Position numbers and translations under genes: made by a program. 64,000 bases of DNA. Source: Candidatus Spongiisocius sp. (GTDB lineage: Bacteria > Actinomycetota > Acidimicrobiia > Spongiisociales > Spongiisociaceae). This document shows positions 1,001 through 17,834 of the stretch, piece by piece; the first letter of the stretch is position 1; the number at the start of each line of letters is the position of its first letter. The stretch lies in the NCBI GenBank assembly GCA_965203035.1, contig OZ241858.1, positions 1,600,882 to 1,664,881 on the forward strand, given 5' to 3'. The notes under the pieces are model-generated. The model saw nothing but the letters and a program-made list of their open reading frames with translations. It did no database searches and was not told the DNA's origin.

Positions 1001-1789
1001 CTAGGAAGTCGGGAGGGGGCTGAGTAGGCGGGTGTCGATTAGGGCTTGGAAGTGGTTGGCGACGCTGGTGGCCAGAACTCGGTGGCGGATCAGGACGCCT
1101 AGCTCGATGTTTCGGTCGAGGGCGGCGGCGGTGAGGTTGGCGGAGGTGATGAAGACGGCCTCGTCGTCCACCACCACGGCTTTGGCGTGGAGTACGCCGG
1201 TGGGGCCTTCCGGGTCTAGGGAGCGGGGGTCGTAGTAGACGGCGGGCTTGGACGTGCCGGGCCAGTCCTTTCCCCAGAACTGGTCGGTGAAGCGACGGAC
1301 GAGTTGGTCTTCGGAGGTCTTGTCGCCACGGGCGCGCTGGATGTTCAGCAGGATCGTGACTCTCAGACCGGGGATGCCGTCGAGGCGTTGGGCCAGGTGG
1401 GCGAAGGCTTGGGGGCCGTCGAAGTAGGCGTAGGTGCTCACCCACACGGACCGCTCGGCGTTGTCGAACAACTCCTCGTAGACGCGGCGGGTGTCGCGGG
1501 CGTGCAGGCCCGGCACCTCGGGGCCTGACCACACCAGGTCGGGCGACGGAGCCTTGGCGGATGCTTGCTCCACGGAGCGAATCCACGCTGCAACCGCTCG
1601 CCCCGAGATTCCGAGACGTGCGAGTTGGTTGATCTCGCTGATTATCTCCTCAGCACCATCTCCGATTCCAACCTCGGATTCGAGAGACAACCGGCTTGGG
1701 CGATCAGGGAGAAGGCCATAGTCGAAGGCGTCGGCGAGCTTCCGCAATAGATTCGAGGGAAGCGCCTGGATGTGGTGGCCCGCGAACAT
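1001..1789 (-). CDS. drmC: DISARM DrmC, phospholipase-D-like (HKD) nuclease
   Basis: Single HxK(x4)D..S.N motif 'HAKAVVVDDEAVFITSANLT'. Start ATG at 1789 overlaps the drmB stop by 1 nt. The N-terminal extension in the 327-aa track ORF is Arg/Pro-rich GC artefact. Last gene of a drmD-drmMI-drmA-drmB-drmC arrangement. Confidence 0.8.
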   Translation of the reverse strand: MFAGHHIQALPSNLLRKLADAFDYGLLPDRPSRLSLESEVGIGDGAEEIISEINQLARLGISGRAVAAWIRSVEQASAKAPSPDLVWSGPEVPGLHARDTRRVYEELFDNAERSVWVSTYAYFDGPQAFAHLAQRLDGIPGLRVTILLNIQRARGDKTSEDQLVRRFTDQFWGKDWPGTSKPAVYYDPRSLDPEGPTGVLHAKAVVVDDEAVFITSANLTAAALDRNIELGVLIRHRVLATSVANHFQALIDTRLLSPLPTS

Positions 1790-3612
1790 CAGCTCATAGG
1801 GAAGAAGGCGGCGTCTTCGTGGCCGAGTACCGGCACTACGAGCGCCCTGTCGAGGTAGTCGTTGCGCATCTCGCAGGAGGTCTCGGCGATCAGGGTGCAT
1901 CCGTGACAGGCGGCGCCGTGCAGCCCACGCTCCTCGAAGTCCTGATGGGCGGTGTGCTGGGCGCAGATCGGGTCGTTGGAGCACAGCTTGCCCATCTCCA
2001 GAGCGTGGGCGAGGTGTTGCTCGAAGTGGCGGGCCTGCTGGACGAGGCCGCCCAGCGTTCCCTCGGCATCCGGACTCCCCGTGTAGAGGAGGATGCCGTA
2101 GTTGCCGGACTCTACGTACACCCGCTCACGGATGGAACTGGCCGGGTATCCGCAGCGCATCGCCATCGACTGGATGAGCAGGTGAGCCAGGGTATGCAAC
2201 AGGATGTACGGGCCGCCGGGGAACCCATCCGGCCCCTTACCTCGGCTTTGCCGCCAGGCCTTGTGGCCGTCCAGCAACTCGTTGATGCGGTCCTTGACAG
2301 GCGGGCGCTTCAACCAGGCATCGACCGCTGAGGGGTGCAGATGGGCGAACACGCCCTCTCCCCGGTTCTCGACGGCGGGGAACCATTCGGGTTCGATGGC
2401 GAGGTCGGCTCGTTCCACGTCGGTTTCGTACTCGCCGTGGATGTCCCGGACCGCCGCCTCGAAGCGGGTGAAGCCGATCAGGGCTAGAACCTCGCGCAGC
2501 CGGTGGAGCTGGAACACCGACTCGACTCCGCTGCTGATCCCGGAGTCCGGGTGCCTCCAAACATTGTCCGGCAGCCGCCGGGCGTGGAAGTCAGGATCAA
2601 CCGGCACGTCATCGCCGAACCCCTCGGGCGCGCTGAGTATGGCCTCGATCTCGGCTTCCTTGATGGACCGGTCGGATCCGGTCCCGCTGCGACGCTGTTC
2701 GATCGCCCGCATCACCTCGGCGTCGGCGAAGGGGCTCAGCGCCTCGGCAATCTTCGGTTTCCCCTTGATGAAGCTGAGGTGGAGAGGTTCAAGCACGATC
2801 TGAAGGTCGTCCCAGAGGTCGTTGACCACCCGCTCGACGGCAGTGCCCCGGTCTGGCAGGGAGAGGATGCCGACTACCTGGGGAAAGTAGGCGTTGGAGG
2901 CCGTACGGATGAGGAGCCGGCTCGGGTGGTTGCAATCCTCGGCGGTGTTCAGGCCGAGCCAGGGCCGTGTGCCTCGACAACCACCGAGCGGCCGGGTACT
3001 GATATCCGTGGCCTCGTAGAGGCGTCGCGACTTGCGACACTCGCACCGGACGACCAAGTCGGCCAGGTCCCCGGTGGTTCCTTTCTCGTCGAGCCAGAGT
3101 TGACGCCCGCAGCGTTTGCCTCGGCCGTGCACGAATCCAATCCAATCGAGGTCGTCGACGTGTCCCCTCGGGCAGGCCCGTACGAATCGGGTGGGAACCA
3201 CGGATCGACCCTCGTAGCGCCCCTTATCGTCGAGGGTCCTCCGATGCACGAGCCGGCGGGAGCGGGTCCGCCCCTTCCGAGCGGAGGGCTCGGCCCCACC
3301 AGCGCCGGACAGGTTGGCTTCCTGCACTACGAACCACTCGGGGAACCGCCACGCGCCGATGCCCTGTCCCGACGCCCAGGGTTCGGACGGTTCGGGCGGG
3401 GGAGCGTACATCTTCGGCGCCGGCACACCCGTGATGAGCCGGAGAAAACCGGTGAGCCGCGCGTCCACGACCTCGGTAAGGCCGGCCGGGCTCGGCCAGG
3501 TATCGAGGCCGCCGACGATGGCGGCATGATCGGGTAGGTCGATCAGCGCACCCGGCCCGTAGGTGGTGATCACCTGGCTCTGGCGGATCTGCCCGTGGGC
3601 CTTGGGACTCAT
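1789..3612 (-). CDS. drmB: DISARM DrmB (DUF1998-type, C-terminal Cys cluster)
   Basis: ~607 aa from internal Met 'MSPKAHGQIRQSQVITTYGPGALIDLP'. C-terminal 'CAQHTAHQ...CHGCTLIAETSCE' zinc-ribbon-like cluster typical of DUF1998. Lies between helicase drmA and PLD drmC. The track ORF N-terminus (3612-3837) overlaps drmA and is an artefact. Confidence 0.75.
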   Translation of the reverse strand: MSPKAHGQIRQSQVITTYGPGALIDLPDHAAIVGGLDTWPSPAGLTEVVDARLTGFLRLITGVPAPKMYAPPPEPSEPWASGQGIGAWRFPEWFVVQEANLSGAGGAEPSARKGRTRSRRLVHRRTLDDKGRYEGRSVVPTRFVRACPRGHVDDLDWIGFVHGRGKRCGRQLWLDEKGTTGDLADLVVRCECRKSRRLYEATDISTRPLGGCRGTRPWLGLNTAEDCNHPSRLLIRTASNAYFPQVVGILSLPDRGTAVERVVNDLWDDLQIVLEPLHLSFIKGKPKIAEALSPFADAEVMRAIEQRRSGTGSDRSIKEAEIEAILSAPEGFGDDVPVDPDFHARRLPDNVWRHPDSGISSGVESVFQLHRLREVLALIGFTRFEAAVRDIHGEYETDVERADLAIEPEWFPAVENRGEGVFAHLHPSAVDAWLKRPPVKDRINELLDGHKAWRQSRGKGPDGFPGGPYILLHTLAHLLIQSMAMRCGYPASSIRERVYVESGNYGILLYTGSPDAEGTLGGLVQQARHFEQHLAHALEMGKLCSNDPICAQHTAHQDFEERGLHGAACHGCTLIAETSCEMRNDYLDRALVVPVLGHEDAAFFPMS

Positions 3613-3614
3613 CG

Positions 3615-6600
3615 TCAGGAGTCCGACAGGGATGCGGTGAGCGGCTTGATGTGCAGGTTCACGTCCGGCTCCACGTCCCGCAGCGAGCGGTTGGCGCGGA
3701 ACTTGCGCTGGTGGGGCGAGTCGAACTCCTCCTCGAGTATCTCCCGGAGCAGGCGTCCGGGGCCCCTGCCCGACTCGTACTTCTGGTACTTCACGGCGCT
3801 GTTGACGATCTGGTAGTGCTCCACCACCGCCAGCCACGAGTCGAGCAGATCGACCACCCGGGCAGCCACGCTCTGGCGCCGATCCTCTCGCTCCGCCTCG
3901 TCATCCAACGGTTGGCTATCCACTCGTTCCTGGAAGAGTTCCCGCAGCCGTTGCTCGACCGCGGCCCGCACGGTCGTGAGCGAAGTGACACCGCCGGGCG
4001 GCGTCAGGACCGGTTGGGCGTGGCGGGCGTATCCGACCAGCGCGCCGGCCATGCCCCGGTCGAGGGCGCGCGCCGAGAACGGCGTGACGCTCGACGCCTC
4101 GACGGGCCGGTAGAAGGTCTCGTGGTAGTGGCGGAACCGTTCGTAGTGGGACCGGTCGCGAGGCTTGTGGACGTTGAGCAGCGTGACCACCAGTCCCGGC
4201 TTGCGGTCGTCGCGGCCTACGCGGCTGGTGGCCTGGATGTACTCGGCGTGGGTCTTGGGCTGGCCGAGCACCACCATCAGCCCGAGGCGGGGAATGTCGA
4301 GGCCCACCGAGATCATGTTGGTGGCGATGGCGCTGTCCACCCGATCCCTCTCGTGCGCGCCGCGCCCGAGGCGGCGCCGTGCCTCGGCCACCTTGGCGGT
4401 GGGAACCCGAGACGTCAGCTCCACGACCTCCGAGAAGGTCCGGCGATCCCGGAACAGGCCCTCCTGGTAGTTCTGGCCGATGCGCCTCCGTCCCCCGGAG
4501 GCCTTGACGGTGTTGCGGACCTCCTCCTCGAGGATGCGCCTCGCCCCACCCAGTTCGCGAAGGCTGTTGAAGTAGCCGAGCACGGTCATGTACGGATCGG
4601 CCGGGTTGTCCTCGTTGCGGTGCCCGCCGGAGTCCCGGTAGGCGCGCTCGGCCGCTCCCATGAGGGCCAACCAGACGCGACGCATCAAGGTCTTCGGGTT
4701 CCGGCCCGGTGACGCGATGCCGAGATAGAGCCGGCCGGGTACCTGATCGTTCGGAACGATCTCGGCGAAGAACGAGTCGCGCCGGTCCGGTCCAGGAGGC
4801 GGGAAGATCCGGGTGTTGGATCGGGCGAACAGGGCTTGGATCTGGTCCTGAGCCTGGCGCACCGTGGCGGTGGAAGCCACGATCTTGGGCAGCACGTCAG
4901 GGGTGGAGGCGTCTCCCTGATGATCGGTACCGGCGGCCCGCACGCACAGCGCCTCGATCACAGTCTCGTACAGCCCGGCCATGGTGCCGAGGGGCCCGGA
5001 TATCAGGTGCAGCTCGTCCTGGATCACCAGGTCGGGCCCGGGGAGCGGCCGCCCGAGGGGCTGGCCCTGCTTCGGGTCGGCGGCGCCGTAGAACCCGGCT
5101 TCGTCATAGCGATCCGCCCCGCCGAGCAATGCCCCGGTCTGGGCCGTCCACGGAAGCGAGGCGAACTTGTCCACGGTGGCGATCAGGAAGGCGGGAAGGC
5201 GGCGGTAGATGGGCTCGTCCACGCCCAGGATCGGCAGAGGGCGGTCCCCGCTGAAGTCGCACTCGAAGTCGGCGCAGACGATACGAAGCTCGGTCGGTGT
5301 GTCATCGTCGGGCCTTAGATCGAACGACGCCGGCTGGAAACGGGTGTCGCACCACGGGCAACTCTCCAAGGGGATGGGCAACGGCTTCCCCGTCGGGTCG
5401 GCCTTGAACCGGATGGTCTTGGACCGGGCCGAGTCCGACCGCCCATCGCCCTTGCGGCCCATGATGTTCGGGGTAGCCGCCTTGCCGACCCACAGGCCGA
5501 TCTCGAACGGCCAGACTCCGTAGCGCTCAGGGTCAGCCTCGCGTTCGAGTTCGAGCGCGCAGACGAGACCGGCCGCGCGGGCTAACTGGTCGAGCGTGAG
5601 CAGACGCAGCGTGTAGCGCATGATCACAGCGACCCCGGCGCCGTGCCTGCCGTCCTGGCCGGGGTTGCGGAGGCGCCTCAACACTATGGAGAAGGCGGCA
5701 AGACCCAGGTATGCCTCGGTCTTCCCGCCGCCGGTCGGGAAGAAGAGCAGGTCGACGATCTTGCGATGGGAGTGGTGCGGGTCGCCGAGGCCGGGAAGGT
5801 TCAGCAGGATGAAGGCCAGCTGGAACGCCCGCCATCGCGGGGCCGGCTCGTCAGGCCCGAGCCGCTGGCGCAGGGCTCGGGCCACAGCACGGTTGGCCAT
5901 CCTGAAGGCGTCGAGGGCATCAGGATCGTTAGCGAGAAACTCGATGCCGCTCTCGATGCGGGCGGCGGCGATGCCGGCGTGACGCAGCAGCTCCTCTGCG
6001 GTCTCCCGACGGTCGCCGTTGTGCGCTCCGAGACCGTCGCGCTGCGCATCGATCCAGGATCGATAGTGGTCCACGAGTGGGTTCAGCGCTGCGGAGGCAT
6101 CCTCGCCGTCGGCCAGAGCGCCGAGGGCCTCCATCGACAACTCAACCTCCGGGATCTTCACGGGCTCGGTCTTGGCGACGGTCGCGCTGGGGATCCAGGC
6201 CGTGCGCAGCAGGCGGCAGTCCCCATGGACCATCTCCCACTCGGCGGACACGCCGTGACCGACGGCGTACTCGGGCGTGTCGGCGTAGTGGAGGTCGGCA
6301 ACCCGGTCGTCCCACTCCGCAGCCGCCATCCCGCGGGGGTCGGGCCGGGGAACGAAGGACTCGTTGCATGTGACTTCGAGTTCCGCCTGGAATGCGTAGG
6401 CTCGGTCGGCAACTCCGGCACCAGCCGGCTTGCTCGGGACGGGCGGCCGATTGTTCACGAGAAACACCGACACCGACCGGGTTCCACGGGGGAGAGCGGC
6501 TAGACGGCGGCCGTGGATCGGCCTGGAGACGACATGCAGCCGCAGACCGCCGGACGCCGGAACCCGGTGATCGGGAGGGTCCGAGAGGTCCACCCGCACG

Positions 6601-7100
6601 GTTCGCTCCTGCGCCCTCCTCCGCCAGACGGATAGCGGTTTGCCTTCCGCATCCTCCCCCTCGCCAGGCGTGTAGTCGCCCCAGCGAACCGTCACTTCGA
6701 GTGCGCCGGTGTCCTCGGACACGAGGAAGCTCAGACCAATCGAGGACGGGAAGAAGCCCTTCTTCGCCGCCCGCCGTTCGTCGGCGGACTCCTCGACCAG
6801 CCCGGCGGTGTCCGGGACCTCGTCGAGGGAGTCGTCCTCGTCAACGTCGCTCCGGTCCTCGAACGGCGTGTCCGACGGGATCAGGAACCCGGTCAGGTAC
6901 CAGTTCGACGGTCTCCTCCAACCGGGCAGTAGTTCATCGGCGAGGTCGTGACCGGCGCCTGGTCCCACAAGGTCGAGCTTCAGCGCCTCGACCAGGTACT
7001 CGCGCACCTGCGCTGAGTCGGCGAACGCGAGTGACGACGGTGGGGAGTCAGCGATCATGCGGATGTACTGTAGGCAGAGCGCCTGACACGGAACAGCCAA
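3615..7100 (-). CDS. drmA: DISARM DrmA, DExH-box helicase (1161 aa)
   Basis: Walker A 'FFPTGGGKTEAYLG', DExH 'VIQDELHLISGPLGT', C-terminal helicase motifs. TTG start at 7100, with an in-frame stop 2 codons upstream. Confidence 0.8.
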   Translation of the reverse strand: MAVPCQALCLQYIRMIADSPPSSLAFADSAQVREYLVEALKLDLVGPGAGHDLADELLPGWRRPSNWYLTGFLIPSDTPFEDRSDVDEDDSLDEVPDTAGLVEESADERRAAKKGFFPSSIGLSFLVSEDTGALEVTVRWGDYTPGEGEDAEGKPLSVWRRRAQERTVRVDLSDPPDHRVPASGGLRLHVVSRPIHGRRLAALPRGTRSVSVFLVNNRPPVPSKPAGAGVADRAYAFQAELEVTCNESFVPRPDPRGMAAAEWDDRVADLHYADTPEYAVGHGVSAEWEMVHGDCRLLRTAWIPSATVAKTEPVKIPEVELSMEALGALADGEDASAALNPLVDHYRSWIDAQRDGLGAHNGDRRETAEELLRHAGIAAARIESGIEFLANDPDALDAFRMANRAVARALRQRLGPDEPAPRWRAFQLAFILLNLPGLGDPHHSHRKIVDLLFFPTGGGKTEAYLGLAAFSIVLRRLRNPGQDGRHGAGVAVIMRYTLRLLTLDQLARAAGLVCALELEREADPERYGVWPFEIGLWVGKAATPNIMGRKGDGRSDSARSKTIRFKADPTGKPLPIPLESCPWCDTRFQPASFDLRPDDDTPTELRIVCADFECDFSGDRPLPILGVDEPIYRRLPAFLIATVDKFASLPWTAQTGALLGGADRYDEAGFYGAADPKQGQPLGRPLPGPDLVIQDELHLISGPLGTMAGLYETVIEALCVRAAGTDHQGDASTPDVLPKIVASTATVRQAQDQIQALFARSNTRIFPPPGPDRRDSFFAEIVPNDQVPGRLYLGIASPGRNPKTLMRRVWLALMGAAERAYRDSGGHRNEDNPADPYMTVLGYFNSLRELGGARRILEEEVRNTVKASGGRRRIGQNYQEGLFRDRRTFSEVVELTSRVPTAKVAEARRRLGRGAHERDRVDSAIATNMISVGLDIPRLGLMVVLGQPKTHAEYIQATSRVGRDDRKPGLVVTLLNVHKPRDRSHYERFRHYHETFYRPVEASSVTPFSARALDRGMAGALVGYARHAQPVLTPPGGVTSLTTVRAAVEQRLRELFQERVDSQPLDDEAEREDRRQSVAARVVDLLDSWLAVVEHYQIVNSAVKYQKYESGRGPGRLLREILEEEFDSPHQRKFRANRSLRDVEPDVNLHIKPLTASLSDS

Positions 7101-7112
7101 CCCTCAGGCAAG

Positions 7113-7143
7113 GCACCCTCGTGTCCGCGCTCACGGCGAGGGT
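7113..7143. promoter_or_regulatory. perfect 8-bp-stem hairpin (caccctcg N15 cgagggtg) immediately upstream of the drmA start; possible operator or 5' structure
   Basis: Seen directly in the sequence. Lies in a ~200-bp divergent intergenic region between drmA (-) and the plus-strand small-protein operon. Confidence 0.25.
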
Positions 7144-7306
7144 GTTAACGAGATGCCGGGATGTCAACCTCTAAGGTTTTTTGGCGTTCTACTATGTCGA
7201 GCCACGATTGGCACAGGTAGAGAGTAGTGTACGATAGAGCAGGGGCACGCTGGCCAGCGGCCCGGCACCGTGATCCATGCGGATGGCACGTTCGAGGAGG
7301 TAGAGG

Positions 7307-7507
7307 ATGACCACGACATATCACATGACGCGTGAGGAGCTGTGGCAGGAGATGGAAGCTCGTCTTGAGGAGGAGCGGATGACCGTCGAGGAGTTCCGCG
7401 CCGAGGGCGAGGCGGACACGCTCACCGATGCCGAACTACGCGAGCTCTGGTTGATGTACAGGCCACTCCTGTTCGACGATGAAGAATCCCACTGGGAGGA
7501 TCGCTAG
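7307..7507 (+). CDS. small acidic protein P1 (66 aa), paralog of P2
   Basis: Shares 'EGEADTLTDA' and the flanking pattern with the next ORF. Strongly acidic. Its stop overlaps the GTG start of P2. Confidence 0.5.
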   Translation: MTTTYHMTREELWQEMEARLEEERMTVEEFRAEGEADTLTDAELRELWLMYRPLLFDDEESHWEDR

Positions 7508-7695
7508 TGGCCGAAGTAAGGATCGTCACGAACGAACAGATGATCGAGGAGGTCAAGAGCATCCTTGAGGCTGAGCACATGACCTTCGAGCGTTTCGTCT
7601 CCGAGGGGGAGGCAGATACGCTTACCGATGCTTTCCACAGGGATCTATGGCTCGACTATCGCGAGTGGATCCGAGACTGGATCAACGACACATGA
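7507..7695 (+). CDS. small acidic protein P2 (62 aa), paralog of P1
   Basis: GTG start overlapping the P1 stop. 'FERFVSEGEADTLTDAFHRDLWLDYR' aligns with P1. Its stop overlaps the ATG of the next gene (ATGA). Confidence 0.5.
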   Translation: MAEVRIVTNEQMIEEVKSILEAEHMTFERFVSEGEADTLTDAFHRDLWLDYREWIRDWINDT

Positions 7696-8387
7696 CACAG
7701 TCGTTACTCCGTCCGGCCTCCGAATCCTTCGCCGATCGACTCAACAGAGTGGTCGCGGCAGCGCTAGAGACCGATCTGCGGTTCGTGGCCAGCGTGGCGA
7801 GCAACGGTAGGCGTGCGAACGTTCGAGCCTCCGCAGTTCCGAACCGCAGATCCGACGGGTTCCCTCTGGTTCGCCTTAGCGACATACCTGGAGCACCGGC
7901 GATGTTTCTTCTGCCGAGGTTCTTCGTCGAGATCAGTCCTGAGACCGCCCGCCTTCGGGTCGCGACCTCCACCATTGGGTTGTGGGTGGACATCACCGGC
8001 GGCCGCAAGCCACCACGTCCGTTGATACGGGTCGAATACGATCGTCGACTCGATACGGGCCATGGGGCGGCCGCGCATGTTCATGTTCACGCTCACTCGC
8101 CTGAACTGGCCTGGCTTTACGGCTCCAGCGGTCTGGCTGCCCCCAATCTTCATGCTCTGCACTTCCCGGTTGGTGGTAGGAGGTTCCGACCGACACTCGA
8201 GGACTTCCTGCTCTTCCTGGACAGGGAGAACATTTTCACCCATTTCAAGGAAGGATGGAAGACCACCGTGCTGCGATCACTTCGAGAATGGGAGGAAATC
8301 CAGGCGAGGTCGACGGTACGGCAGTATCCCCGATTGGCAGCCGATGCCCTGCGAGATATGGGTTATAGAGACCTGAGGTGTGGTTAG
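7692..8387 (+). CDS. hypothetical protein P3 (~231 aa, His-rich segment 'HVHVHAHSPE')
   Basis: Internal Met of track ORF 7647..8387, coupled to P2 by an ATGA overlap. No recognised domain. Third gene of the plus-strand operon embedded in the DISARM locus. Confidence 0.45.
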   Translation: MTQSLLRPASESFADRLNRVVAAALETDLRFVASVASNGRRANVRASAVPNRRSDGFPLVRLSDIPGAPAMFLLPRFFVEISPETARLRVATSTIGLWVDITGGRKPPRPLIRVEYDRRLDTGHGAAAHVHVHAHSPELAWLYGSSGLAAPNLHALHFPVGGRRFRPTLEDFLLFLDRENIFTHFKEGWKTTVLRSLREWEEIQARSTVRQYPRLAADALRDMGYRDLRCG

Positions 8388-8830
8388 CAGTCGGACTGAT
8401 TCGACCATCGTTCCGTCGTGTTGTACGCAGAGAACAAGGCGGGAAAGAAGCCCTTCTTCGCCGTCCGCAGTTCCTCGGCCAATTCCTCCGCTAACCCGGC
8501 TTTCTCCGGCACCTCGTCGAGGGATTCGTCCTCGTCCAGGTCGCTGCGGTCCTCGAACGGCGTGTCCGACGGGATCAGAAACCCGGTCAGGTACCAGTTC
8601 GACGGTCTCCTCCATCCGGGCAGTAGTTCATCGGCGAGGTCGTGACCGGCGCCGGGTCCCACCAGGTCGAGCTTCAGCGCCTCGACCTGGTGGGAGCGCA
8701 CATCCGACGAATCGGCGAACGTCAGCGACGACGGCGGGGAGTCAGCGATCATGCGGACGTACTGTAGGCAGGGCGCCTGACACGGAACGGCCAACCCTCA
8801 GGGAGGCATGCACGGGCCACCGCTGCGGCA
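8384..8830 (-). pseudogene. degraded 5' copy of drmA (first ~115 codons plus ~10 nt upstream), roughly 85% identical to authentic drmA by eye
   Basis: Track ORF 8384..8794 translates to 'MAVPCQAPCLQYVRMIADSPPSS...GFFP', matching the drmA N-terminus, then diverges to a stop. Nucleotides 8700-8830 align with 7020-7120. Confidence 0.7.
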
Positions 8831-8892
8831 CGGGAGTGATGGCCGACTATCTAGAGGAATACCGAGGCCGCCGCCTGGGAAACCCAACATCA

Positions 8893-9336
8893 TCAGCGAC
8901 CGGCAGCTCTGGCTGCCTTTTCGATCCAAGTGCCAAGGTTATCGTAACCCTTATGCCATTTCCAAAGATAGAAGGGGTAACCGCGTGGAATCCTGCCGCA
9001 ACGCGAGCTAGTTTTCCCGGCGAGATCTTTGATCTTACTTATATCGACCCCCAGAAGGCCATTGCCACGTTCTTTGCTCGCCTTGATCTCGTACTTGACC
9101 CATTTGCTCCTGCACGTGTGCGACCCCACAAGAACTACTGTGACCGAAGTTCCCTTCAGTTGTTCATCAATCCAGTTCTTGATCGCCTCGTCTCCGCGCT
9201 GTTTGATCTCTTCGAATTCGGCCTTGTCAATGAATCCGGACGCTTCCTTGCCCTGAGTAACCCAACTATTGCGGACAACCATCGCTCGCGAGACATCGTG
9301 GTCGTACTCGAAACTGAAGAATACCCGGCGAGCCAT
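8893..9336 (-). CDS. TIR-like domain protein (DUF1863 / ThsB-like), 147 aa
   Basis: 'RVFFSFEYDHDVSRAMVVRNSW...SVTVVLVGSHTCRSKWVKYEI' matches the DUF1863 TIR-like pattern (FISY..D......W......S..V.vL.S......S.WV..Ei). Local GC ~50% versus ~68% in flanking DNA. Confidence 0.6.
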   Translation of the reverse strand: MARRVFFSFEYDHDVSRAMVVRNSWVTQGKEASGFIDKAEFEEIKQRGDEAIKNWIDEQLKGTSVTVVLVGSHTCRSKWVKYEIKASKERGNGLLGVDISKIKDLAGKTSSRCGRIPRGYPFYLWKWHKGYDNLGTWIEKAARAAGR

Positions 9337-9355
9337 CTATCTTTCTCCTGTACGA

Positions 9356-9751
9356 TTAGCTGACTAGAACAGCAACTAGAACACCTATTGCTACAGCCAT
9401 ATAGAAGCTGACAAGTGTCACAGAGAACATCGAGGAGCGCCATGCCAGTTTCGTGCCCTTGAATCGGTTTGTTCTCATCGAGAAGTCGATCTCCTCAGGC
9501 TGCAGGAGACGCACGTGATCGTACAGAGCACGGTACAGTCGTTCTTGGCGAAGGAAATAGGCGTCTAAACCCCAGAACACCAGCGTAGGGAGAAGGCCAA
9601 CCAGCGCCCAGTCGCTTTCGCCCTGCCGCGAAACCAGCACGAGTAGGGCGGAAACCAGCACGACGCTCCACCCCTTCAACATGAAGGAGTTGAAGGCCAT
9701 GCGGTTGATGACACCCTGGATCAGTTCCAAGTGCTTCAGCTTGGATTCCAT
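9356..9751 (-). CDS. small integral membrane protein (~131 aa, 3 predicted TM helices); possible SLATT-like effector
   Basis: Start chosen at 'MESKLKHL' with GGGAGGG 6 nt upstream. Hydrophobic segments 'WSVVLVSALLVLV', 'WALVGLLPTLVFWGL', 'FSVTLVSFYMAVAIGVLVAVLVS'. Sits 19 nt upstream of the TIR-like gene on the same strand, in the same low-GC block. Confidence 0.55.
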   Translation of the reverse strand: MESKLKHLELIQGVINRMAFNSFMLKGWSVVLVSALLVLVSRQGESDWALVGLLPTLVFWGLDAYFLRQERLYRALYDHVRLLQPEEIDFSMRTNRFKGTKLAWRSSMFSVTLVSFYMAVAIGVLVAVLVS

Positions 9752-9844
9752 CCACACCCTCCCGGCGGCGAACCTCATGCGCCTGACGTGACTGCGACTC
9801 CGGCGCGTGAGCCCAAGTCTAGTGACTGCTTTGCCAGAGGTTAC

Positions 9845-10180
9845 GGGGCGAAGGGATCGCTGTGGACGGAGCGGGACGAGTCTCCGGCGCTGGGAACGCC
9901 GTGCCGGATTTGGCGGTCTTGGTGGGCTTGGCGAGGCCGGCGCGGGCTGCTTCGGCGGTGCGTTGGGCGTTGAGTTCCAGGAAGCGAGCCAGCACCTGGT
10001 CGCGGACGGCGTCGGGCCATCGGTAGCGGTAGGACTTCTTCGTCCTGCCCGAGGTCTCCCCATCGGTCTCGTAGTCGAGCAGGTGCTCGCAGTCCGTTGG
10101 GATGTCGGTCCAACCGTGGGCGTCAAGTACTGCTCAATCCATGGCGGTGCGCAGACGACGGAGTTCGTCGATCTCGGGGA
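9845..10180 (-). pseudogene. degraded 3' copy of drmMI (last ~100 codons) with an in-frame TGA
   Basis: Minus-strand translation '...AVLDAHGWTDIPTDCEHLLDYETDGETSGRTKKSYRYRWPDAVRDQVLARFLELNAQRTAEAARAGLAKP' matches the drmMI C-terminus. Nucleotides 9930-10180 align with 13870-14110. Confidence 0.65.
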
Positions 10181-10562
10181 TCGTTCGAGTGTTCTCAGCG
10201 ACTGCACGCAGGGCCCACCCTGACGCCGCGTGGCTCGTGCGTTGTGACGCCCGCGAGCGGATGTTTGATGTGGTGCTCCCGATTCTGGTCGACATCGCTG
10301 GCAGCCGAGACGTCGATGTGACCCCGGCCCCGTTCTGGCGACCCACCCAGACGTCGCTGTACGGCGACCGGGTCACCTAACCCGGAGAGATGGACCTGCT
10401 CGTGCGTCCCAGAACGACGACAGCCCGAACCCACGGCCCCGCGGCCCTCGGCCTGTAGGCCAAGACGCGGCCACTTCCCCACGTAAGGAGACCAGAATTG
10501 CTACTCCGTCCACCCCCTGCAAACCCCTCGATCCGTGAAGAGTCAGCGCTAGTCTTCGACGA

Positions 10563-12058
10563 GTGACCGAAGGAACACTGTCTGAGATCGCTGCTTGGCT
10601 GGACGAGGAGGCCGACTGCCAAGAGTTCTTCAGCCGTATTAGTGTTTCCCTCAACCGGCGCTTCGAAGTAGACGATCCGCTGGCTCCTCTCCCGTGGGCC
10701 TTCGACTACAGGCTTCTTGCGAGGTCCGACGAACGGTATGAAGGTCATGGTCCCTTCGGCCCGCTGTTGGAGACCACTGATGGACAACATCCGCCCCCAC
10801 TTGACCAGATTCCTGAAGAGGCAGTTTCTCTGTGGGAGAAGCTGAGCGGACTTGTCACGCATCCGTATTTGAAGGCGCGCCTGAACGACCTGATGTGGGA
10901 GCGACGCTGGTCTGACAGCCCCCACTTGTACGCTGGTACAGCTATCGATGCATATCTGGCACTGGGTCCTCCGGTAGCCGACGGGATGGAGTATGTGAAC
11001 GCTCTCTCTCGCGCGGCTGGGCTGGCACGGCAGATCAATGATGGTCAGCGGCGCCAGCTCGTCGTTGAAGCCGCTCTGCGCCGCGCCCAGGCAGAACTTG
11101 CCGGTGCCGAAGCGAAGCCAGGGATCGCCCTCCGTCTATTGGACGTAGTCCTCGATGATGACGGTGAGGGAGTCAGGGATAGAGTGGCCAGCTTGTTGGA
11201 GCAGGCTAACAAAGTATTCGATGATCCGTGGATTAGGAATAAAGTCATTGACCGGCAGATAGCTTTCTCATCTGGTGAGCGAGAACGGCGAAAGGAGCTG
11301 GAACTCCAAAAGGTCAATACTTGGATCCGGCGCGCCTCGACCGAAACCGGAATGAGGCGGCGGATTTTCTTGATGAGCGCACTGGAGCACGCCCGCACTT
11401 ACGGCTTCCGTGGCCAAGCGGAGCAGATCCGGCGGGAGATACAAGAGATCGAATTCAGTGAGGACAGCATGCAGAGCATCTCTGCCACAGTTGAGGTGCC
11501 AAGTGACGAAATCGAGAATACGATCTCTCAGATCAGCTCCGCTGGTACGTGGGCTGGCTGCTTGGATCGCCTGCTGTTCTTCGGGCCTCTGAGTGGCAGT
11601 CTGAAAGAGAATATCGAGCATGTCCGCCAGCAAGCAGAACAGTTCGTGGTCCAGCACCTGGTCCCCTCTGAAGTCTTAGGTCCTTGGAATGAGACTGTTT
11701 TCGTTGCTCATACTGAAGAACAGAAACAAGAATACAATCTGTCTAATTTTGAATCAATAGGTATCCAGATGAATAGCTATATCGTGGCTGCGGCTCTTGA
11801 GGCTATACAGGTCACCCACGGAATTCCCGCGAAGGACGAATTAGAGGACTTCTTCTCGACACCTTTCATTGACGAAGGCACCGCCGAACGGATAGCGGCG
11901 AGTGTCCTGCACTATGTCGTAGGCCAGTTTGATGAGTGTATCATGGTTCTTATTCCTCGGATCGAGAGGACAATACGGCAACTCATCCGCGAGATTGGTG
12001 CGCCAACCTGGTTGGAACCTAGATCAGGCGGATTCGGGAAACAGCGTTCGCTATACCG
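10563..12058 (+). pseudogene. N-terminal ~498 codons of a ~577-aa gene interrupted by ISL3 insertion (GTG start)
   Basis: Track ORF 10563..12122. Its last ~20 codons read into the IS inverted repeat. The ORF resumes after the 8-bp target duplication at ~13499. Confidence 0.6.
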
Positions 12059-13490
12059 GCTCTCCGCGTTTCAGTGGGGAGTGAGGGTGGTCAATAGGTC
12101 CCAGTTGGGTTTGCCGGCGTAGAGGAGGGCGCGGATTCGGTAGTTCGCGAAGTTGCGGAACCCGAAGGCTGTGCGTTTGACGCGTTTGATGAGGTTGTTG
12201 AGGGCTTCGGTGGGTCCGTTGGTCACGCGGGAGATGTGCCAGTTGGTGATCTGGGGGGTCCAGCGGGCGATGGTTCGTCCTAGTCGGTTGATCTCTGGTG
12301 GACAGGATTCGTCTTGGAGGTCGTCAGCCAACTGGAGGGTGTAGGAGAGCGCGGTGGCGATGCTGTCTATCTGGTAGATGCCTCGGACGGTTTCTTTGGC
12401 GTGCCAGGCGGTGCGGACTTCGCCGTGGGGGTCACCGGCGTCCAAGAGGCCACGGAGCCGTGTTTGGCCACCGTCGCTGATGCGTTCGGATGCGGCGGTG
12501 AGGAGCCGCCGTATCCGATACAGCGGATCGCCTTTTCGGCCTCTGTGCCCGAGGGTTTCGTTCTGGACCCGGCGCCGGACTTCGTCGAGCCGCTGGTTAG
12601 CCAACCGGATGACATGGAACGGGTCTGCGACTTGTGAAGCGTGGGGCAGCACCCGGTCATATGCGGTCCGATAGGGGCCGGAGAGGTCCAACACCGCCCA
12701 CAGGATCTGATCCCGCCATTCCTGGGACTGTTCCCGAAACCAGGATGCGGCGCTTTCTGCTGTCCTGCCAGGGACTATGTCCAACAGCTGGCGACCTCCC
12801 ACATCGACCACAGAGGTCGCCCACTGGGGGATACGCCACCTTCCCTGACGCCAGAACAACGTCTCATCGACCCCCACAGCTTCCACAGCCCCGAAACGGG
12901 AAGTGTCGGCTTCCAGCAGCGCTTCACCCCACCTTGCCACCTCTCCGTTGACCGTATGCCACCCACAACCCAACTCCGCAGCGACCTCTTGGACCGAACG
13001 GCCCAACCGCCCCACCTGGACGGTCGCCCACCTGGCCGCCCGAGACGTCAACAATCCACGCACAGGCGCAATCCCCGCATCCTGTTCGATAAACGAGCTG
13101 ACCGCACACTCAGAACTCGGGCACATCCAGCGCCGCTTCCGCCACCGCAGACGAACCGGCCGACCGAACGCCGGCAGATCCACCAACACCACCGTCCGCT
13201 CGCCCTTGGACCACACCCCTCCGCCACAGCCCCCACACATCGGACGGGACAGGCGAGACCCGATCACAACCTCCAACGGCGCCCCATCGCCCCCGTCGTC
13301 GATCCCGACCAACTCCACGTCGCCCAGACCCACCAACAACTCACACATGCGCGTAGGATCAGCTTCCACAGGGGTCCTCCTGCCTCGGATGTCATTGCTG
13401 AACTCCGATTATGGAGGACCCCTCCTCACTTCTAGTGGATTCCGAACCCCCGCACAGATCCCCCCACTCCCCACCCATTCGCGAAGAGCC
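12058..13490 (-). mobile_element. ISL3-family insertion sequence (~1.43 kb) with 8-bp target-site duplication GCTATACC
   Basis: Terminal inverted repeats GGCTCTCCGCGTTTCAGTGGGGAGTGAGGG (left) and GGCTCTTCGCGAATGGGTGGGGAGTGGGGG (right, reverse complement). GCTATACC repeated directly at ~12050-12058 and ~13491-13498. Confidence 0.85.
12071..13369 (-). CDS. ISL3-family DDE transposase (432 aa, GTG start)
   Basis: Characteristic C-terminus '...TNGPTEALNNLIKRVKRTAFGFRNFANYRIRALLYAG' plus the 'GVDE' region. Confidence 0.9.
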   Translation of the reverse strand: MEADPTRMCELLVGLGDVELVGIDDGGDGAPLEVVIGSRLSRPMCGGCGGGVWSKGERTVVLVDLPAFGRPVRLRWRKRRWMCPSSECAVSSFIEQDAGIAPVRGLLTSRAARWATVQVGRLGRSVQEVAAELGCGWHTVNGEVARWGEALLEADTSRFGAVEAVGVDETLFWRQGRWRIPQWATSVVDVGGRQLLDIVPGRTAESAASWFREQSQEWRDQILWAVLDLSGPYRTAYDRVLPHASQVADPFHVIRLANQRLDEVRRRVQNETLGHRGRKGDPLYRIRRLLTAASERISDGGQTRLRGLLDAGDPHGEVRTAWHAKETVRGIYQIDSIATALSYTLQLADDLQDESCPPEINRLGRTIARWTPQITNWHISRVTNGPTEALNNLIKRVKRTAFGFRNFANYRIRALLYAGKPNWDLLTTLTPH

Positions 13491-13769: not shown

Positions 13770-16700
13770 CTAGAGGTCGGTCTCCCACAGTGTCCTGGAC
13801 GTAGTGGTGCCGGTGAACGCCCCATCAGAGCGCCGACGCTGCGGCGCGTTCTCCCCACTCATGGGCTTTCTGAGGCCGGCGCGGGCTTCTTCGGCGGCGC
13901 GTTGGGCGTTGAGTTCTAGGAGGCGGGCTAGCACCTCGTCGCGGATGGGATCGGGCCAGCGGTAGCGGTAGGGCTTCTTCTTTCTGCCCCAGGTCTCCTC
14001 GTCGATTTCGTAGTCGAGTAGGAACTCGCAGTCCGTGGGGATGTCGGTCCAGCCATAGGCGTTCAGCACAGCTCGATCCATGGCTGTGTGCAGACGACGG
14101 AGCTCGGTGATCTCGGCATCGTTCTCGTAGGGATCGTGGAAGCGGTTGTAGATCTTGGTCATCCCCTCGCCATAGCGAACCATGAGCGCCGCCCGGAATT
14201 CATAGTACTCACTGCCGACTGCTTCAAAATCGTAGCGGCTCCGCCAGTTCTCAGGAAACGGAAAAGTCTCGAAACAATCCGACGGCGTATAACGCAGGTC
14301 GTCCTTCATTGAAGATCCAAAGAATAGTGCCCAAGCTTCGTGAGGTCGTGCCTGTAGAGCGGAAAAGGCGGCGTAGTTCTCGACCGGATAGACGTTTAGC
14401 GTGTGTCCATACACCATATTTGACGGCAGGAACGCAAACTGTACATGGTTGCTAACCTGAGAGTTAGCTAGTACACGCGCTAATTTGTCGACTCTGCTAT
14501 AGAGTTCCTTTGCATGATGAACGAACTGCCACCAGATGGACGCTCGTTTGCCATGACCTGACTTACTGATTCTCGCCGACTCCATCCGCTCTGGCCTAAC
14601 TGACTCCTCTATAATCGAAAGGAGATGAGGATATAGGTAGCGGCATTCCTCCAGTGCCATTTCTCCGAAGTTAATTACGAATCGGTGATGTGATTGTGTC
14701 GCGCTAGTGTTAAGTTCCTTGCCTCCAATATAAGGGAATATCACGTTGCCATAGTGGGGATTCTCTCTCAGGAGATCTCTCATTGTCTCTATCGGTGTAG
14801 CAAGGCCTCCGCGCCCTGCATCGTCGAAGGAAAACCCGCCAATCCCAAGAATATAGCTGCCAACGAAGCTACTTCCTATATTGGTTCGAAGAGGTAGTGG
14901 GTCATCGTGGCCACCTCTATTGGACAAGAAGGCGGTAATCTTGTCAACGACCTGCCCATCTATGTATCTATGACCGCCGTATTGGCCCTTGCTGATGTGG
15001 ACGATACTCACGACTACTGCGGCTAGCCCCGGCCAACTGACGCGTCGACGAGCGTTATATATCTGACCGCCCTTCTTACAGATCCAACGTAACCCGCTGG
15101 CACGTGTATCTCCTTGGGCAATAGTGTTGGTGGCGATTAAACCTAGTGTCCCATTCCGGCGGATCAGATCGTAGGATCGCCGATAGAAGTGAGCGACTAC
15201 ATCGCACTTACCTGTGCTCTCAGGATGGGTCAGCCTCAACCACTGTGTGTAGCCGCGCACGTTAGCGTTGACAACTGTGTTATGGCCACCGAACGGTGGG
15301 TTGCCGACTATGGTGTCAAACCCTGGGTTGGGCCGGTCGAAGACTTCGGGGAACGCAATCTGCCAGTGGAACGGGGCAAGTGGTGGATCACCGTACCGTA
15401 GTTCGGTCAGCCATCCCTTGTACTGACCGGCGGACCCGTTGAGCACCGCGGACGCGAACTTCTTGCGGCGCTCCTCCCGAGCCTTGGGCTTGGACTCATC
15501 GAAGAAGGCGGCCAGTACCAGGTCACCGAGCATCTGCACCTCGTCCGTCTCGTCCCGCGCTTCCCGCCACCAGGCTCGTCGTTCCCAGTCGGACACGGTG
15601 TCATCCGCCTCGCGGATTCGACGGCGCAGATCGTTGGCGCGATCGAGGTGTTCCTGTCCTCGCAGTGCTTCGAAACCGGCCTGGAAGATGGGGGCTTTGC
15701 CCTTCCAATGGAAGGTCCGTGTCTGGGGTATCGAGAGTCCCACCAGCGAGTCGCCGTGTCGCAGGGCGTGATCCAGGAAGGTCAATGGATGGTCCTTGGC
15801 CAGGGTGATCAGCCAGAGTGACAGCTTGGCGAGATCCACGGCCTTGGGGTTGCGGTCCACTCCGTAGAGGCAGCGCTGGGCCACCAGCCGCCGGGCGAAG
15901 ATCTGCTCGTCCTCGTCGGGCGGGATCTCGGGCATGGCGTCGTGGGCGCGCCACGATTCGATGAGTTGATCGGCGAGTTGGCGGCAGGCCTCCACCAGGA
16001 AGGCAGCCGATCCCATGGCCGGGTCGCACACCTTGAGGTCGAGAATCTGATCGGGACGGACCGGGCCGCCGGCCTCGGTAGCTAGCCGATCCAGGATGGG
16101 TTCCAGCGCCTTACGGACGATGGGCTCGGTGAGCTCGCGGGGCGTGTAATGCGAGCCGGACTTTCGGCGTTCCTCGCTCGGCTGCAGCACCATGGCGCCT
16201 GCCGCTACCAGGTCCGGAGTGGCGTTGCGATCAAGAACCGAATCGAGCGCCGCATGCATCTCGTCGAGGGAACCAGACTCCCGAACCGCCTTACCCACCT
16301 TTGTGGTGAGCGTGCGGTCGGTACGGTCCCGGATCCACTTGACCCGCTTGGACGGTTCCTGTCCCAGTAGGGCTTCGAGGTTCACCGTGGCGGGAGCGCC
16401 ATGCTTCTTGGTGGCCTTGATGGCAACGCTCCGGCCTGAGGCGGTCTCGAGGCGGAAACCCATCATGGTCTCGTAGACCGAGCCGATGTGCTCCACATCA
16501 AGCGCCCGGTAGGAGATGCGCTCGGCGTCCAGGACGATGAGCTTCTCCAGCACCCGGTGGATCGTGCCGTCCCCGATGCGCGGCGGCTCGATCCTCTCCA
16601 ATGTCTGCCGCGGGCCGAAGTCACGGCCTTCGAGGAACGGGTAGCGATCGGGGCGGAAGAGATCGCCGTACTTGGGCGCCATTGACATCTGCCCGGCGTT

Positions 16701-17834
16701 GGCGCCGTCGTGGACCATGCGCCAGAGGGCCAGGAGTTGGGCGTAGGCGCCGTAGCGCTGGTCCATGGTGTCCGGGTGCTGGGAAGCGTCGGCTCGCAGC
16801 CGCTCGTAGAGACCGGACACCGAGTAGGCGCCCAGGAAGGTCTCGTCCTGGGGCAGCAGGTCCCGCTCCTCGGCGTACAGCAGGTAGACGAGGCGCAGTA
16901 CCACCGTCAGCAGTCCCCGGTAGATCTCGTCGGGATCCTCCGCAAGCCAGCGCCCGAGCAGCCGACCTTCAGACGCGTCATGAGCGGCCTGGAAGCCTCG
17001 CAGCAGTTCGTAGAGTGCGTGGAGCACCTGTTCGGCCAGGCGCTCGCTCACCTCGTTCTGGAACTTGCGGCTGTCCTCCAGTAGCGCCGCCAGGCGCTTC
17101 TCCCGCGGCACGCTTAGCAGGCGCGTCTCTCCGAGAAGCTCGCGCATGGCTGAGCAGATCGGTCGGCCTGCCGTCTGGACCATGTCGCTCACCTGGAAGT
17201 CCAGCCATCCCGAACTCTCACCCCGGGGCGCGGAGACGAGGCGCAACGTTCCGCCATTGAATAGGAGCCCCGCTGGAACGCCCGTGTTTCGCAACAGCCG
17301 CTCCATCCGGCCATGAGGTGACAGGTCCAGACCGCCGCCGGAGACAGCGCGGTCCAGGTCCTCGCCGGGTTCGCACACGCTGACCAGCAGTTGCCATGGA
17401 GAGGGTTCGTCCTCTTGCTCGTCACCCTTAGGAACGGCGGGCCGCACCGGAGCCCGGAGCGGTTCGGAGCGAACTGCGAAGTCGGGCCGGAACGCCTGGC
17501 CGGATTCCGGCAGCGGAAGCTCCAGGTCCGTGGGGATCGGCGCCTCAGCGGTGCCGGCATAGCCCTTCGGGGAGAACCTCCAACCGAGCACTTTCGCGGC
17601 GAACTGCCGGAAGTCCGGAAGTTCGGTCGTGGTGCCGGCCGGATCGGGAGCGCCGTTCTCAACCCACTCGCGGAGTAGCTTCTGGCCTGGGATATCCCGG
17701 AGGTTCAGGATCACGCCCGCCTTCACGAGCGCAGGCGCCGACACCACCAGGCCGGTAGGTCGGACGAACCCGATCCACTCCAGATGGTCGATTACCCGCT
17801 GGTCACGCTTCGCCATCAGTTGGTCTCCGGCCAC
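13770..17834 (-). CDS. drmMI: DISARM DrmMI, N6-adenine DNA methyltransferase (Eco57I-like), ~1350 aa
   Basis: Motif IV 'TIVGNPPFGGHN' and AdoMet-binding region. Large size typical of DrmMI. The start region overlaps the drmD stop (alternative start 17816). Confidence 0.85.
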   Translation of the reverse strand: MAGDQLMAKRDQRVIDHLEWIGFVRPTGLVVSAPALVKAGVILNLRDIPGQKLLREWVENGAPDPAGTTTELPDFRQFAAKVLGWRFSPKGYAGTAEAPIPTDLELPLPESGQAFRPDFAVRSEPLRAPVRPAVPKGDEQEDEPSPWQLLVSVCEPGEDLDRAVSGGGLDLSPHGRMERLLRNTGVPAGLLFNGGTLRLVSAPRGESSGWLDFQVSDMVQTAGRPICSAMRELLGETRLLSVPREKRLAALLEDSRKFQNEVSERLAEQVLHALYELLRGFQAAHDASEGRLLGRWLAEDPDEIYRGLLTVVLRLVYLLYAEERDLLPQDETFLGAYSVSGLYERLRADASQHPDTMDQRYGAYAQLLALWRMVHDGANAGQMSMAPKYGDLFRPDRYPFLEGRDFGPRQTLERIEPPRIGDGTIHRVLEKLIVLDAERISYRALDVEHIGSVYETMMGFRLETASGRSVAIKATKKHGAPATVNLEALLGQEPSKRVKWIRDRTDRTLTTKVGKAVRESGSLDEMHAALDSVLDRNATPDLVAAGAMVLQPSEERRKSGSHYTPRELTEPIVRKALEPILDRLATEAGGPVRPDQILDLKVCDPAMGSAAFLVEACRQLADQLIESWRAHDAMPEIPPDEDEQIFARRLVAQRCLYGVDRNPKAVDLAKLSLWLITLAKDHPLTFLDHALRHGDSLVGLSIPQTRTFHWKGKAPIFQAGFEALRGQEHLDRANDLRRRIREADDTVSDWERRAWWREARDETDEVQMLGDLVLAAFFDESKPKAREERRKKFASAVLNGSAGQYKGWLTELRYGDPPLAPFHWQIAFPEVFDRPNPGFDTIVGNPPFGGHNTVVNANVRGYTQWLRLTHPESTGKCDVVAHFYRRSYDLIRRNGTLGLIATNTIAQGDTRASGLRWICKKGGQIYNARRRVSWPGLAAVVVSIVHISKGQYGGHRYIDGQVVDKITAFLSNRGGHDDPLPLRTNIGSSFVGSYILGIGGFSFDDAGRGGLATPIETMRDLLRENPHYGNVIFPYIGGKELNTSATQSHHRFVINFGEMALEECRYLYPHLLSIIEESVRPERMESARISKSGHGKRASIWWQFVHHAKELYSRVDKLARVLANSQVSNHVQFAFLPSNMVYGHTLNVYPVENYAAFSALQARPHEAWALFFGSSMKDDLRYTPSDCFETFPFPENWRSRYDFEAVGSEYYEFRAALMVRYGEGMTKIYNRFHDPYENDAEITELRRLHTAMDRAVLNAYGWTDIPTDCEFLLDYEIDEETWGRKKKPYRYRWPDPIRDEVLARLLELNAQRAAEEARAGLRKPMSGENAPQRRRSDGAFTGTTTSRTLWETDL

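Follow-up and report, generated by a model that had tools for sequence, protein, structure and literature searches.

A pair of genes at positions 8893-9751 of a 64,000-nucleotide (nt) stretch of Candidatus Spongiisocius sp. contig OZ241858.1 (the whole stretch analysed here, referred to as the window) very probably constitutes a type V Thoeris system, in which an effector gene, thsF, is followed by thsB, the gene of a TIR sensor and signal synthase. Both genes lie within a class 1 DISARM operon, between remnants of drmMI and drmA. The thsF-like gene (9356-9751, minus strand) encodes a 131-amino-acid (aa) effector with three transmembrane helices that matches the PADLOC model PDC-M50A (E = 2.9e-48), and thsB (8893-9336, minus strand) encodes a 147-aa TIR-like protein (DUF1863/ThsB_TIR; Pfam PF08937, E = 2.6e-24), a putative signal synthase with catalytic Glu83. 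Type V Thoeris has been defined as a TIR gene with a three-helix membrane effector, annotated DUF2270 and renamed ThsF, and the type V systems of Bacillus thuringiensis DAR 81934 and Bacillus sp. 1NLA3E protect Bacillus subtilis (Yirmiya et al., bioRxiv 10.64898/2025.12.03.692087). The assignment of the window pair to this type follows from its homology to the validated effector ThsF. The ThsB of B. thuringiensis DAR 81934 was retrieved (P0121, 100% identical to the published sequence) together with its locus (L083), and its effector was taken to be the 141-aa gene next to thsB, by the consecutive IMG identifiers given for the validated DUF2270 effector in Table S2 of Yirmiya et al. Window ThsF and B. 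thuringiensis ThsF are 47% identical over 129 residues, which is full length (E = 1e-44), and hhalign of B. thuringiensis ThsF against the alignment of the window family returned a probability of 100%. B. thuringiensis ThsF matches PDC-M50A as well (E = 1.8e-48). The further hallmarks of type V are also present, namely an adjacent TIR with a catalytic glutamate (E83) encoded on the same strand across a 19-nt spacer, and three membrane-spanning helices, found both by hydropathy and by AlphaFold2. As in type V Thoeris generally, the operon has two genes, a TIR and a three-helix membrane effector of roughly 130-140 aa, although the effector comes first in the window and the TIR gene comes first in B. 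thuringiensis.

A preliminary description, made from the sequence of this DNA, had taken the pair for a candidate undescribed module. Instead, it corresponds both to type V Thoeris (ThsB with ThsF) and to the PADLOC candidate PDC-M50, since adjacent matches to PDC-M50A (E = 2.9e-48) and PDC-M50B (E = 1.8e-48) are found. PDC-M50 goes back to cassette CAS_00164 (FAM_00415>>FAM_00416), set against the number 57 in Table S8, with the entry "Assign as candidate PDC-M50", and was not among the nine candidates tested experimentally (Payne et al., bioRxiv 10.1101/2024.01.29.577857). Its definition drew on cassettes nested in BREX, DISARM or type I restriction-modification (RM) systems, a layout that the window pair shares, and it is a computational candidate only. 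A full-text literature search did not find the name PDC-M50, which occurs only in the supplementary table. The pair had also been likened to Thoeris-type or TIR-SLATT logic, and here the Thoeris half stood, through the homology of ThsF and ThsB, and the SLATT half fell. No Pfam SLATT match was found at E<=10 by hmmscan in 29 members of the ThsF family, and SLATT membership of the membrane protein was rejected on that ground. Profile searches do concur that the membrane partner has no SIR2, SLOG or Macro domain.

The two genes are separated by a spacer (9337-9355, minus strand) in which an AGGAG Shine-Dalgarno sequence for thsB was read from the sequence. The ATG of thsF is at 9751 and its stop at 9356; homologues start at the equivalent ATG, and GGGAGG is found 5-6 nt ahead of it. 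The preliminary description had already placed a 131-aa three-helix protein, with a good Shine-Dalgarno sequence, 19 nt upstream of a 147-aa TIR on one strand, and the open reading frames (ORFs), the spacer and the ribosome-binding motif were all confirmed. Both thsF and thsB are real genes, because the membrane protein has 2549 database homologues and because the TIR matches PF08937. The guanine-plus-cytosine (GC) content of the pair is 52.9%, compared with 61.7% for drmMI, 68.5% for drmA and 65.4% for the whole window. A lower-GC pair had been reported before and is seen again, at a little over the earlier figure of ~50%; the flanks lie at 62-68%. The thsF-thsB cassette lies 5-15 GC points under its flanks in nearly all of 17 other genomes checked, and the pair is a mobile, lower-GC cassette. 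A scan for sigma-70 promoters and terminators over positions 7000-10700, which leaves actinobacterial promoter types uncovered, found no signal near the pair that exceeded shuffle expectation. When drmMI-thsF spacers of 12 loci were aligned, only the Shine-Dalgarno sequence and the start codon proved conserved, and therefore no shared regulatory element is evident.

The TIR-like, DUF1863/ThsB-like nature given earlier to the 147-aa protein is borne out by the PF08937 match and by homology to ThsB of Bacillus cereus. The protein matches PADLOC ThsB1 (E = 7.5e-58) in addition to PDC-M50B, and the B. cereus MSX-D12 ThsB structures 6LHY and 9B7D match it with E = 9e-24. Catalytic Glu85 of B. cereus ThsB aligns with E83 of window ThsB, as hand-counted from the alignment. 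Window ThsB thus shares its catalytic glutamate with the type I Thoeris system of B. cereus MSX-D12 (ThsA/ThsB) and, judged on this homology, probably makes the same class of signal. The two systems differ in their effectors, which is the SIR2-SLOG protein ThsA, an NADase, in type I and a small membrane protein in the window pair; no ThsA-like (SIR2-SLOG) gene is present among the identified genes from drmC to drmD. Yirmiya et al. (Table S1) give the label "DUF2270 - Type V" to TIRs approximately 70% identical (by eye) to window ThsB, such as IMG 2642724563, and also to TIRs of a second subclass that adjoin thsF, such as IMG 2638790943.

Hydrophobic segments of ThsF were located by hydropathy at residues 22-41, 49-67 and 107-131. 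An AlphaFold2 single-chain model from a 29-sequence alignment, with a mean predicted local distance difference test score of 87.7, contains a long helical hairpin (residues 2-43 and 46-82) and a third helix (111-130), in agreement with the three hydrophobic helices reported earlier. Nine lysine or arginine (K/R) residues fall in the loop 67-106, and because of this K/R-rich loop between helices 2 and 3 the predicted topology is N-in, C-out. The family comprises at least 2549 sequence clusters among database homologues, with invariant residues, most of them placed in the predicted cytoplasmic helices, that include K6, H7, E9, Q12, R17, K26, W28, P55, FWGLD at 59-63, QERL at 69-72 and R81. The conserved polar residues K6, H7, E9, Q12, R17, K26, Q69, E70, R71, R74 and R81 map to the predicted cytoplasmic helices. 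Ratios of non-synonymous to synonymous substitution (dN/dS) for thsF against orthologues are 0.06-0.19, and the gene appears to be under purifying selection; for thsB, dS is saturated. Both ORFs are intact, whereas the flanking fragments are truncated. The 131-aa window protein has no match in Pfam (hmmscan, E<=1) or NCBIfam, and an NCBIfam search of six proteins also returned no match. Separately, several ThsF members, including that of B. thuringiensis, gave full-length sub-threshold matches (E = 0.012-0.35) to PF24838 ('8xMP, octameric membrane protein family'), which may be a remote ThsF relative with a ring-oligomer architecture.

In the published work, the type V TIR produces 3'-cyclic ADP-ribose (3'cADPR) upon infection, exogenous 3'cADPR is toxic only when the type V system of B. 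thuringiensis is present, and ThsF was modelled as a heptameric ring with positive pockets (Yirmiya et al.). Type I Thoeris, of which B. cereus ThsB is a component, is likewise reported to use 3'cADPR as its signal (Yirmiya et al.). While the homology, anatomy, conservation and genomic context of the window pair were observed directly, it is by homology to these validated relatives that we infer the identity of the signal, an oligomeric pore and defence in the window organism. Upon phage infection, ThsB would use E83 to convert NAD+ to a cyclic ADP-ribose isomer, most likely 3'cADPR if published type V work is a guide. The signal would bind to ThsF, present as a ring-shaped oligomer in the inner membrane, at its positively charged cytoplasmic stalk, and ThsF would then breach the membrane and abort the infection. 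The logic of a nucleotide signal acting on a small membrane-spanning effector is shared with the SLATT effectors of type VII Thoeris and CBASS and with the TM-Macro effectors of type II Thoeris. A reversed division of labour, with the TIR itself as the killing effector by NAD+ depletion and the membrane protein as its sensor or anchor, is highly improbable. It would accord with the many bacterial TIR proteins that are NADase effectors (Yirmiya et al.) and with the fact that ThsF has no recognisable enzymatic or ligand-binding domain. However, the validated type V TIR alone accumulates signal on infection, 3'cADPR requires the system for toxicity, and the closest solved homologue of window ThsB is the signal-producing ThsB of B. 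cereus. Moreover, in type XI-like effectors the membrane module is joined to a separate catalytic HIT domain, which fits a role as signal receiver.

One such effector is encoded on Mycolicibacterium vanbaalenii plasmid NZ_CP126902.1 (L082, 2545-3567), where a HIT-domain protein adjoins a ThsB-type TIR in a type XI-like Thoeris arrangement. The C-terminal half of this protein (residues ~153-330) is a complete ThsF-like three-helix module (PDC-M50A, E = 1.1e-21; hhalign, 98.3%). Type XI Thoeris, with its HIT-hydrolase effector, therefore has in L082 the same three-helix module as the window protein, which is the bare module with no HIT domain. The comparison suggests that the three-helix module is a transferable signal-receiving or membrane unit common to type V and type XI effectors; no mention of a ThsF-like module in the HIT effector was found in the main text of the type XI description (Yirmiya et al.). 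ThsF-type proteins also pair with at least three TIR families (ThsB subclass A, ThsB subclass B and TIR_2 types), at times with several per locus, and one effector family combined with several TIR families is the Thoeris pattern.

The surrounding DISARM set is complete and on one strand, with PADLOC E-values from 4.7e-78 to 0. Along the minus strand it consists of the SNF2 helicase gene drmD of class 1 DISARM (17816-21061; DrmD, E = 3.1e-298), the resident intact methyltransferase gene drmMI (13770-17834; DrmMI, E = 0, 1252.9 bits), the resident intact helicase gene drmA (3615-7100; DrmA, E = 1.5e-267), drmB (1789-3837; DrmB, E = 1e-77) and the PLD nuclease gene drmC (1001-1984; DrmC, E = 4.7e-78). 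An interruption of 6.7 kb separates drmMI from drmA. This gap contains, in order along the minus strand, an ISL3-family transposase gene, a PDC-S39 gene, a drmMI remnant, thsF-thsB, a drmA remnant and a cassette on the opposite strand. The drmMI 3' remnant (9819 to ~10200, minus strand) is a pseudogene that retains, in a single frame, the final ~125 codons; it contains one in-frame TGA, and its native stop is 67 nt upstream of thsF. The drmA 5' remnant (8384-8802, minus strand) retains codons 1 to ~118 and 8 nt upstream and then diverges, as judged by BLASTP against resident DrmA. Positions 9923-10186 are 84.5% identical in nucleotide sequence to the resident drmMI 3' region (13862-14124), and positions 8442-8802 are 88.9% identical to the resident drmA 5' end (6748-7108). 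The bracketing of the pair by a degraded drmMI 3' end and a degraded drmA 5' end had thus been described correctly. Its former position between drmMI and drmA, proposed at the same time, is shown by these remnants and by 18 other genomes in which the pair has drmMI upstream of it and drmA downstream. Comparison with the resident genes gives dS 0.55 and dN/dS 0.46 for the drmMI remnant, and dS 0.28 and dN/dS 0.29 for the drmA remnant. Because of these values (dS 0.28-0.55, dN/dS 0.29-0.46) the remnants are best read as the ends of a diverged, once-functional DISARM allele. Recent duplication in situ was considered as their origin and was rejected on the same values.

Several points weigh against the identification as type V Thoeris. 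Window ThsB belongs to the DUF1863/B. cereus ThsB-like cluster and so sits in a different TIR cluster from the validated B. thuringiensis ThsB, which is of another type and 252 aa long. The experimental backing comes from Bacillus homologues only, none of them actinobacterial. Moreover, of the two Bacillus type V systems that defend, one was not rendered toxic by added 3'cADPR, and a Vibrio homologue gave Escherichia coli no defence (Yirmiya et al.); on account of these two observations, the signal may differ between type V subtypes. Neither the window protein nor validated ThsF is matched by PF10028 (DUF2270) in hmmscan, and none of 28 aligned relatives of the window protein is matched at E<=10; three ThsF relatives give sub-threshold, in-register matches (E = 0.0029-0.15). 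The PF10028 criterion does not discriminate type V membership, since the validated ThsF fails it too and the DUF2270 label was assigned via hhsearch (Yirmiya et al.). Finally, the drmMI directly upstream is a pseudogene fragment, and the sigma-70-like scan detected no promoter. This last point would also suit an unlikely alternative, in which the pair has fallen silent in this genome, as the no longer expressed remainder of a DISARM allele that was replaced. The pair does lie between two pseudogene fragments, in an operon broken by opposite-strand genes and an ISL3 transposase, and no sigma-70-like promoter was seen upstream. However, both ORFs are full length with good Shine-Dalgarno sequences, and all family-invariant residues and the catalytic Glu are kept, while truncations and a stop codon are already present in the fragments beside them. 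Furthermore, a sigma-70-like scan does not cover the promoter types of actinobacteria.

The context of type V Thoeris in other genomes was examined by a scan of species-representative genomes, which yielded 449 loci with ThsF relatives, the best 80 of which were kept. As these 80 are the best matches to a DISARM-embedded query, the embedded fractions given below are overestimates. Grouping the neighbourhoods of these loci by naive ORF clustering gave too much noise in high-GC DNA to be usable. Many of the 80 loci are from metagenome-assembled genomes (MAGs) of Acidimicrobiia, Latescibacterota, Gammaproteobacteria, Spirochaetia and Binatia, and several of these MAGs are sponge-associated. A ThsB-type TIR is found at most 250 nt downstream of thsF in 50/80 loci, and a further eight loci have a TIR_2-type partner upstream or downstream, sometimes beside a ThsB-type TIR and in one case 2.4 kb off. 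Class 1 DISARM surrounds the cassette in 32/80 loci and Hma in 13/80. In 16 of the DISARM loci, from several phyla, the drmMI end lies at most 150 nt upstream of thsF, and 18/80 loci have drmMI upstream and drmA downstream. The remaining 35/80 loci have neither DISARM nor Hma; some adjoin integrases or RM genes of type I or type III, a prophage-like region contains one, and others lie among housekeeping genes. Recurrence between drmMI and drmA, which the preliminary description had put forward as a check, was therefore found in 18 loci, but the junction is not exclusive, as Hma-embedded, stand-alone and plasmid copies exist.

The Hma-embedded loci are L028, L050, L063, L066, L075 and eight further loci, most of them ordered hmaA, thsF, thsB, hmaB. 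In four loci thsF begins 0-6 nt past the end of the HmaA match, and L028 and L075 have a 4-nt overlap between the stop of hmaA and the start of thsF, an arrangement that suggests translational coupling of hmaA and thsF. In these same two loci, a small two-gene pair that is toxin-antitoxin-like by eye lies between hmaB and hmaC. It is thus common to find the cassette within large helicase/methylase defence operons, in the same orientation and directly behind drmMI (class 1 DISARM) or hmaA (Hma).

The preliminary description had suggested an abortive-infection back-up layered into DISARM, which is a fair account of the layout, although homologues act alone in B. subtilis and also occur outside DISARM. 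Such a fixed position raises the question of whether pair and host operon are functionally coupled, much as PrrC guards its type I RM system, with ThsB sensing DISARM or Hma activity, or its inhibition by phage anti-restriction proteins, as a dedicated back-up and not an autonomous hitchhiker. This is an unlikely proposition. The placement of thsF directly after drmMI (at most 150 nt in 16 loci from several phyla) or directly after hmaA (0-6 nt in four loci, with the 4-nt ORF overlap in two), the embedding of 45/80 best-matching loci and the retention of thsF after drmMI in several loci where the TIR partner differs or is displaced all speak for it. However, homologues defend alone in B. subtilis, 35/80 loci lie outside DISARM and Hma in housekeeping, integrase or type I/III RM contexts, and the embedded fraction is biased upward by the query. 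Homologues are also carried by 133 plasmids, including IncF plasmids of E. coli and Klebsiella, for example between IS26 copies on E. coli IncF plasmids, and both TIR subclasses occur in both host systems, which points to promiscuous cassette exchange. PrrC of the EcoprrI type I RM system is likewise a suicide-type defence gene nested co-oriented in a restriction-type operon, and it is physically controlled by its RM partner, a dependence for which the window pair needs no counterpart. PrrC has been cited as an extreme case of embedding (Payne et al.).

A wider version of this idea holds that there is a privileged, operon-internal docking site immediately 3' of drmMI and hmaA in many uncultivated phyla, where the cassette is wired to its hosts and fires, for example, when the restriction-like system is blocked. 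The conserved drmMI 3' and drmA 5' ends would then serve as homology arms that shuttle the cassette between alleles, and the remnants in the window and a drmA fragment in L048 would be scars of this exchange. It is no more probable than the coupling itself. The drmMI-drmA junction acts as a hotspot for cargo and bears recombination scars. Apart from the cassette, the content of the drmMI-drmA gap differs widely among the DISARM loci and includes Gabija-like, Septu-like and toxin-antitoxin-like genes (assigned by eye from N-termini). In the Latescibacterota DISARM loci L047/L048, a 525-aa ATPase-like gene (10533-12110) separates thsF from thsB, and in L048 a drmA 5' fragment (12279-12641) also lies between the two, a second DISARM gene-end scar beside the cassette. 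The gene after thsF in a gammaproteobacterial DISARM locus (L010, 10460-11617) encodes a 5-hmdU DNA kinase helical domain (PF18723, E = 3.5e-96), a domain normally tied to phage DNA hypermodification.

Among phage records, 3/50,697 contain a ThsF homologue, all of them 14-kb Vibrio phage-like elements. A prophage-only context, which the preliminary description had named as a possible objection, is ruled out by this count. The three records (H41-H43) are near-identical ~14.35 kb Vibrio cyclitrophicus PE elements deposited as phages, with the ThsF homologue at 2207-2491 (43% identity over residues 2-95), and may be satellite-type elements carrying type V Thoeris.

The other genes of the gap in the window were also inspected. 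The PDC-S39/DUF7380 gene (10563-12122, plus strand, 519 aa; PADLOC PDC-S39, E = 8.7e-26; Pfam DUF7380, E = 4.3e-11) adds another embedded candidate defence gene to the gap, on the strand opposite to DISARM. Its 3' end is overlapped by ~50 nt by the ORF of the ISL3-family transposase (12071-13369, minus strand; PF01610, E = 3.5e-56), which may have contributed to the rearrangement of the locus. The cassette at 7307-8387 (plus strand) is uncharacterised and consists of two small acidic, paralogous ORFs of 66 aa and 62 aa followed by an ORF of ~231 aa, the start of which is probably the ATG at 7692, with a 4-nt overlap. Its proteins have no match in Pfam, PADLOC or NCBIfam. About 206 homologues of the ~231-aa protein were found; the few that are named belong to Acidimicrobiia or unclassified bacterial MAGs, and several contigs carry multiple copies. 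L008 and L012 also have this cassette, between thsF and drmA, and in L085 the unit (55-62 aa plus 232-236 aa) is repeated three times in tandem, with ResIII, T5orf172, Fic and PIN genes alongside. The cassette may represent an uncharacterised module that is toxin-antitoxin-like or serves in defence.

Taken together, these data make the window pair a new, diverged member of type V Thoeris, with a DISARM/Hma context and recombination scars for which the guilt-by-embedding work already accounts in principle. As a member it is ordinary, in surroundings that are informative, and it leaves the understanding of the system unchanged. It does connect two separate preprints, the embedding-based candidate PDC-M50 of Payne et al. 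and the experimentally defined type V Thoeris of Yirmiya et al., between which no cross-reference was found in the portions of text consulted; the words 'DISARM' and 'embedded' have 0 occurrences in the Yirmiya et al. paper, whereas the window pair is DISARM-embedded and in a high-GC genome, probably an acidimicrobial one to judge by its closest loci. Type V Thoeris therefore reaches high-GC, uncultivated genomes, where DISARM and Hma operons often contain it at a fixed position.

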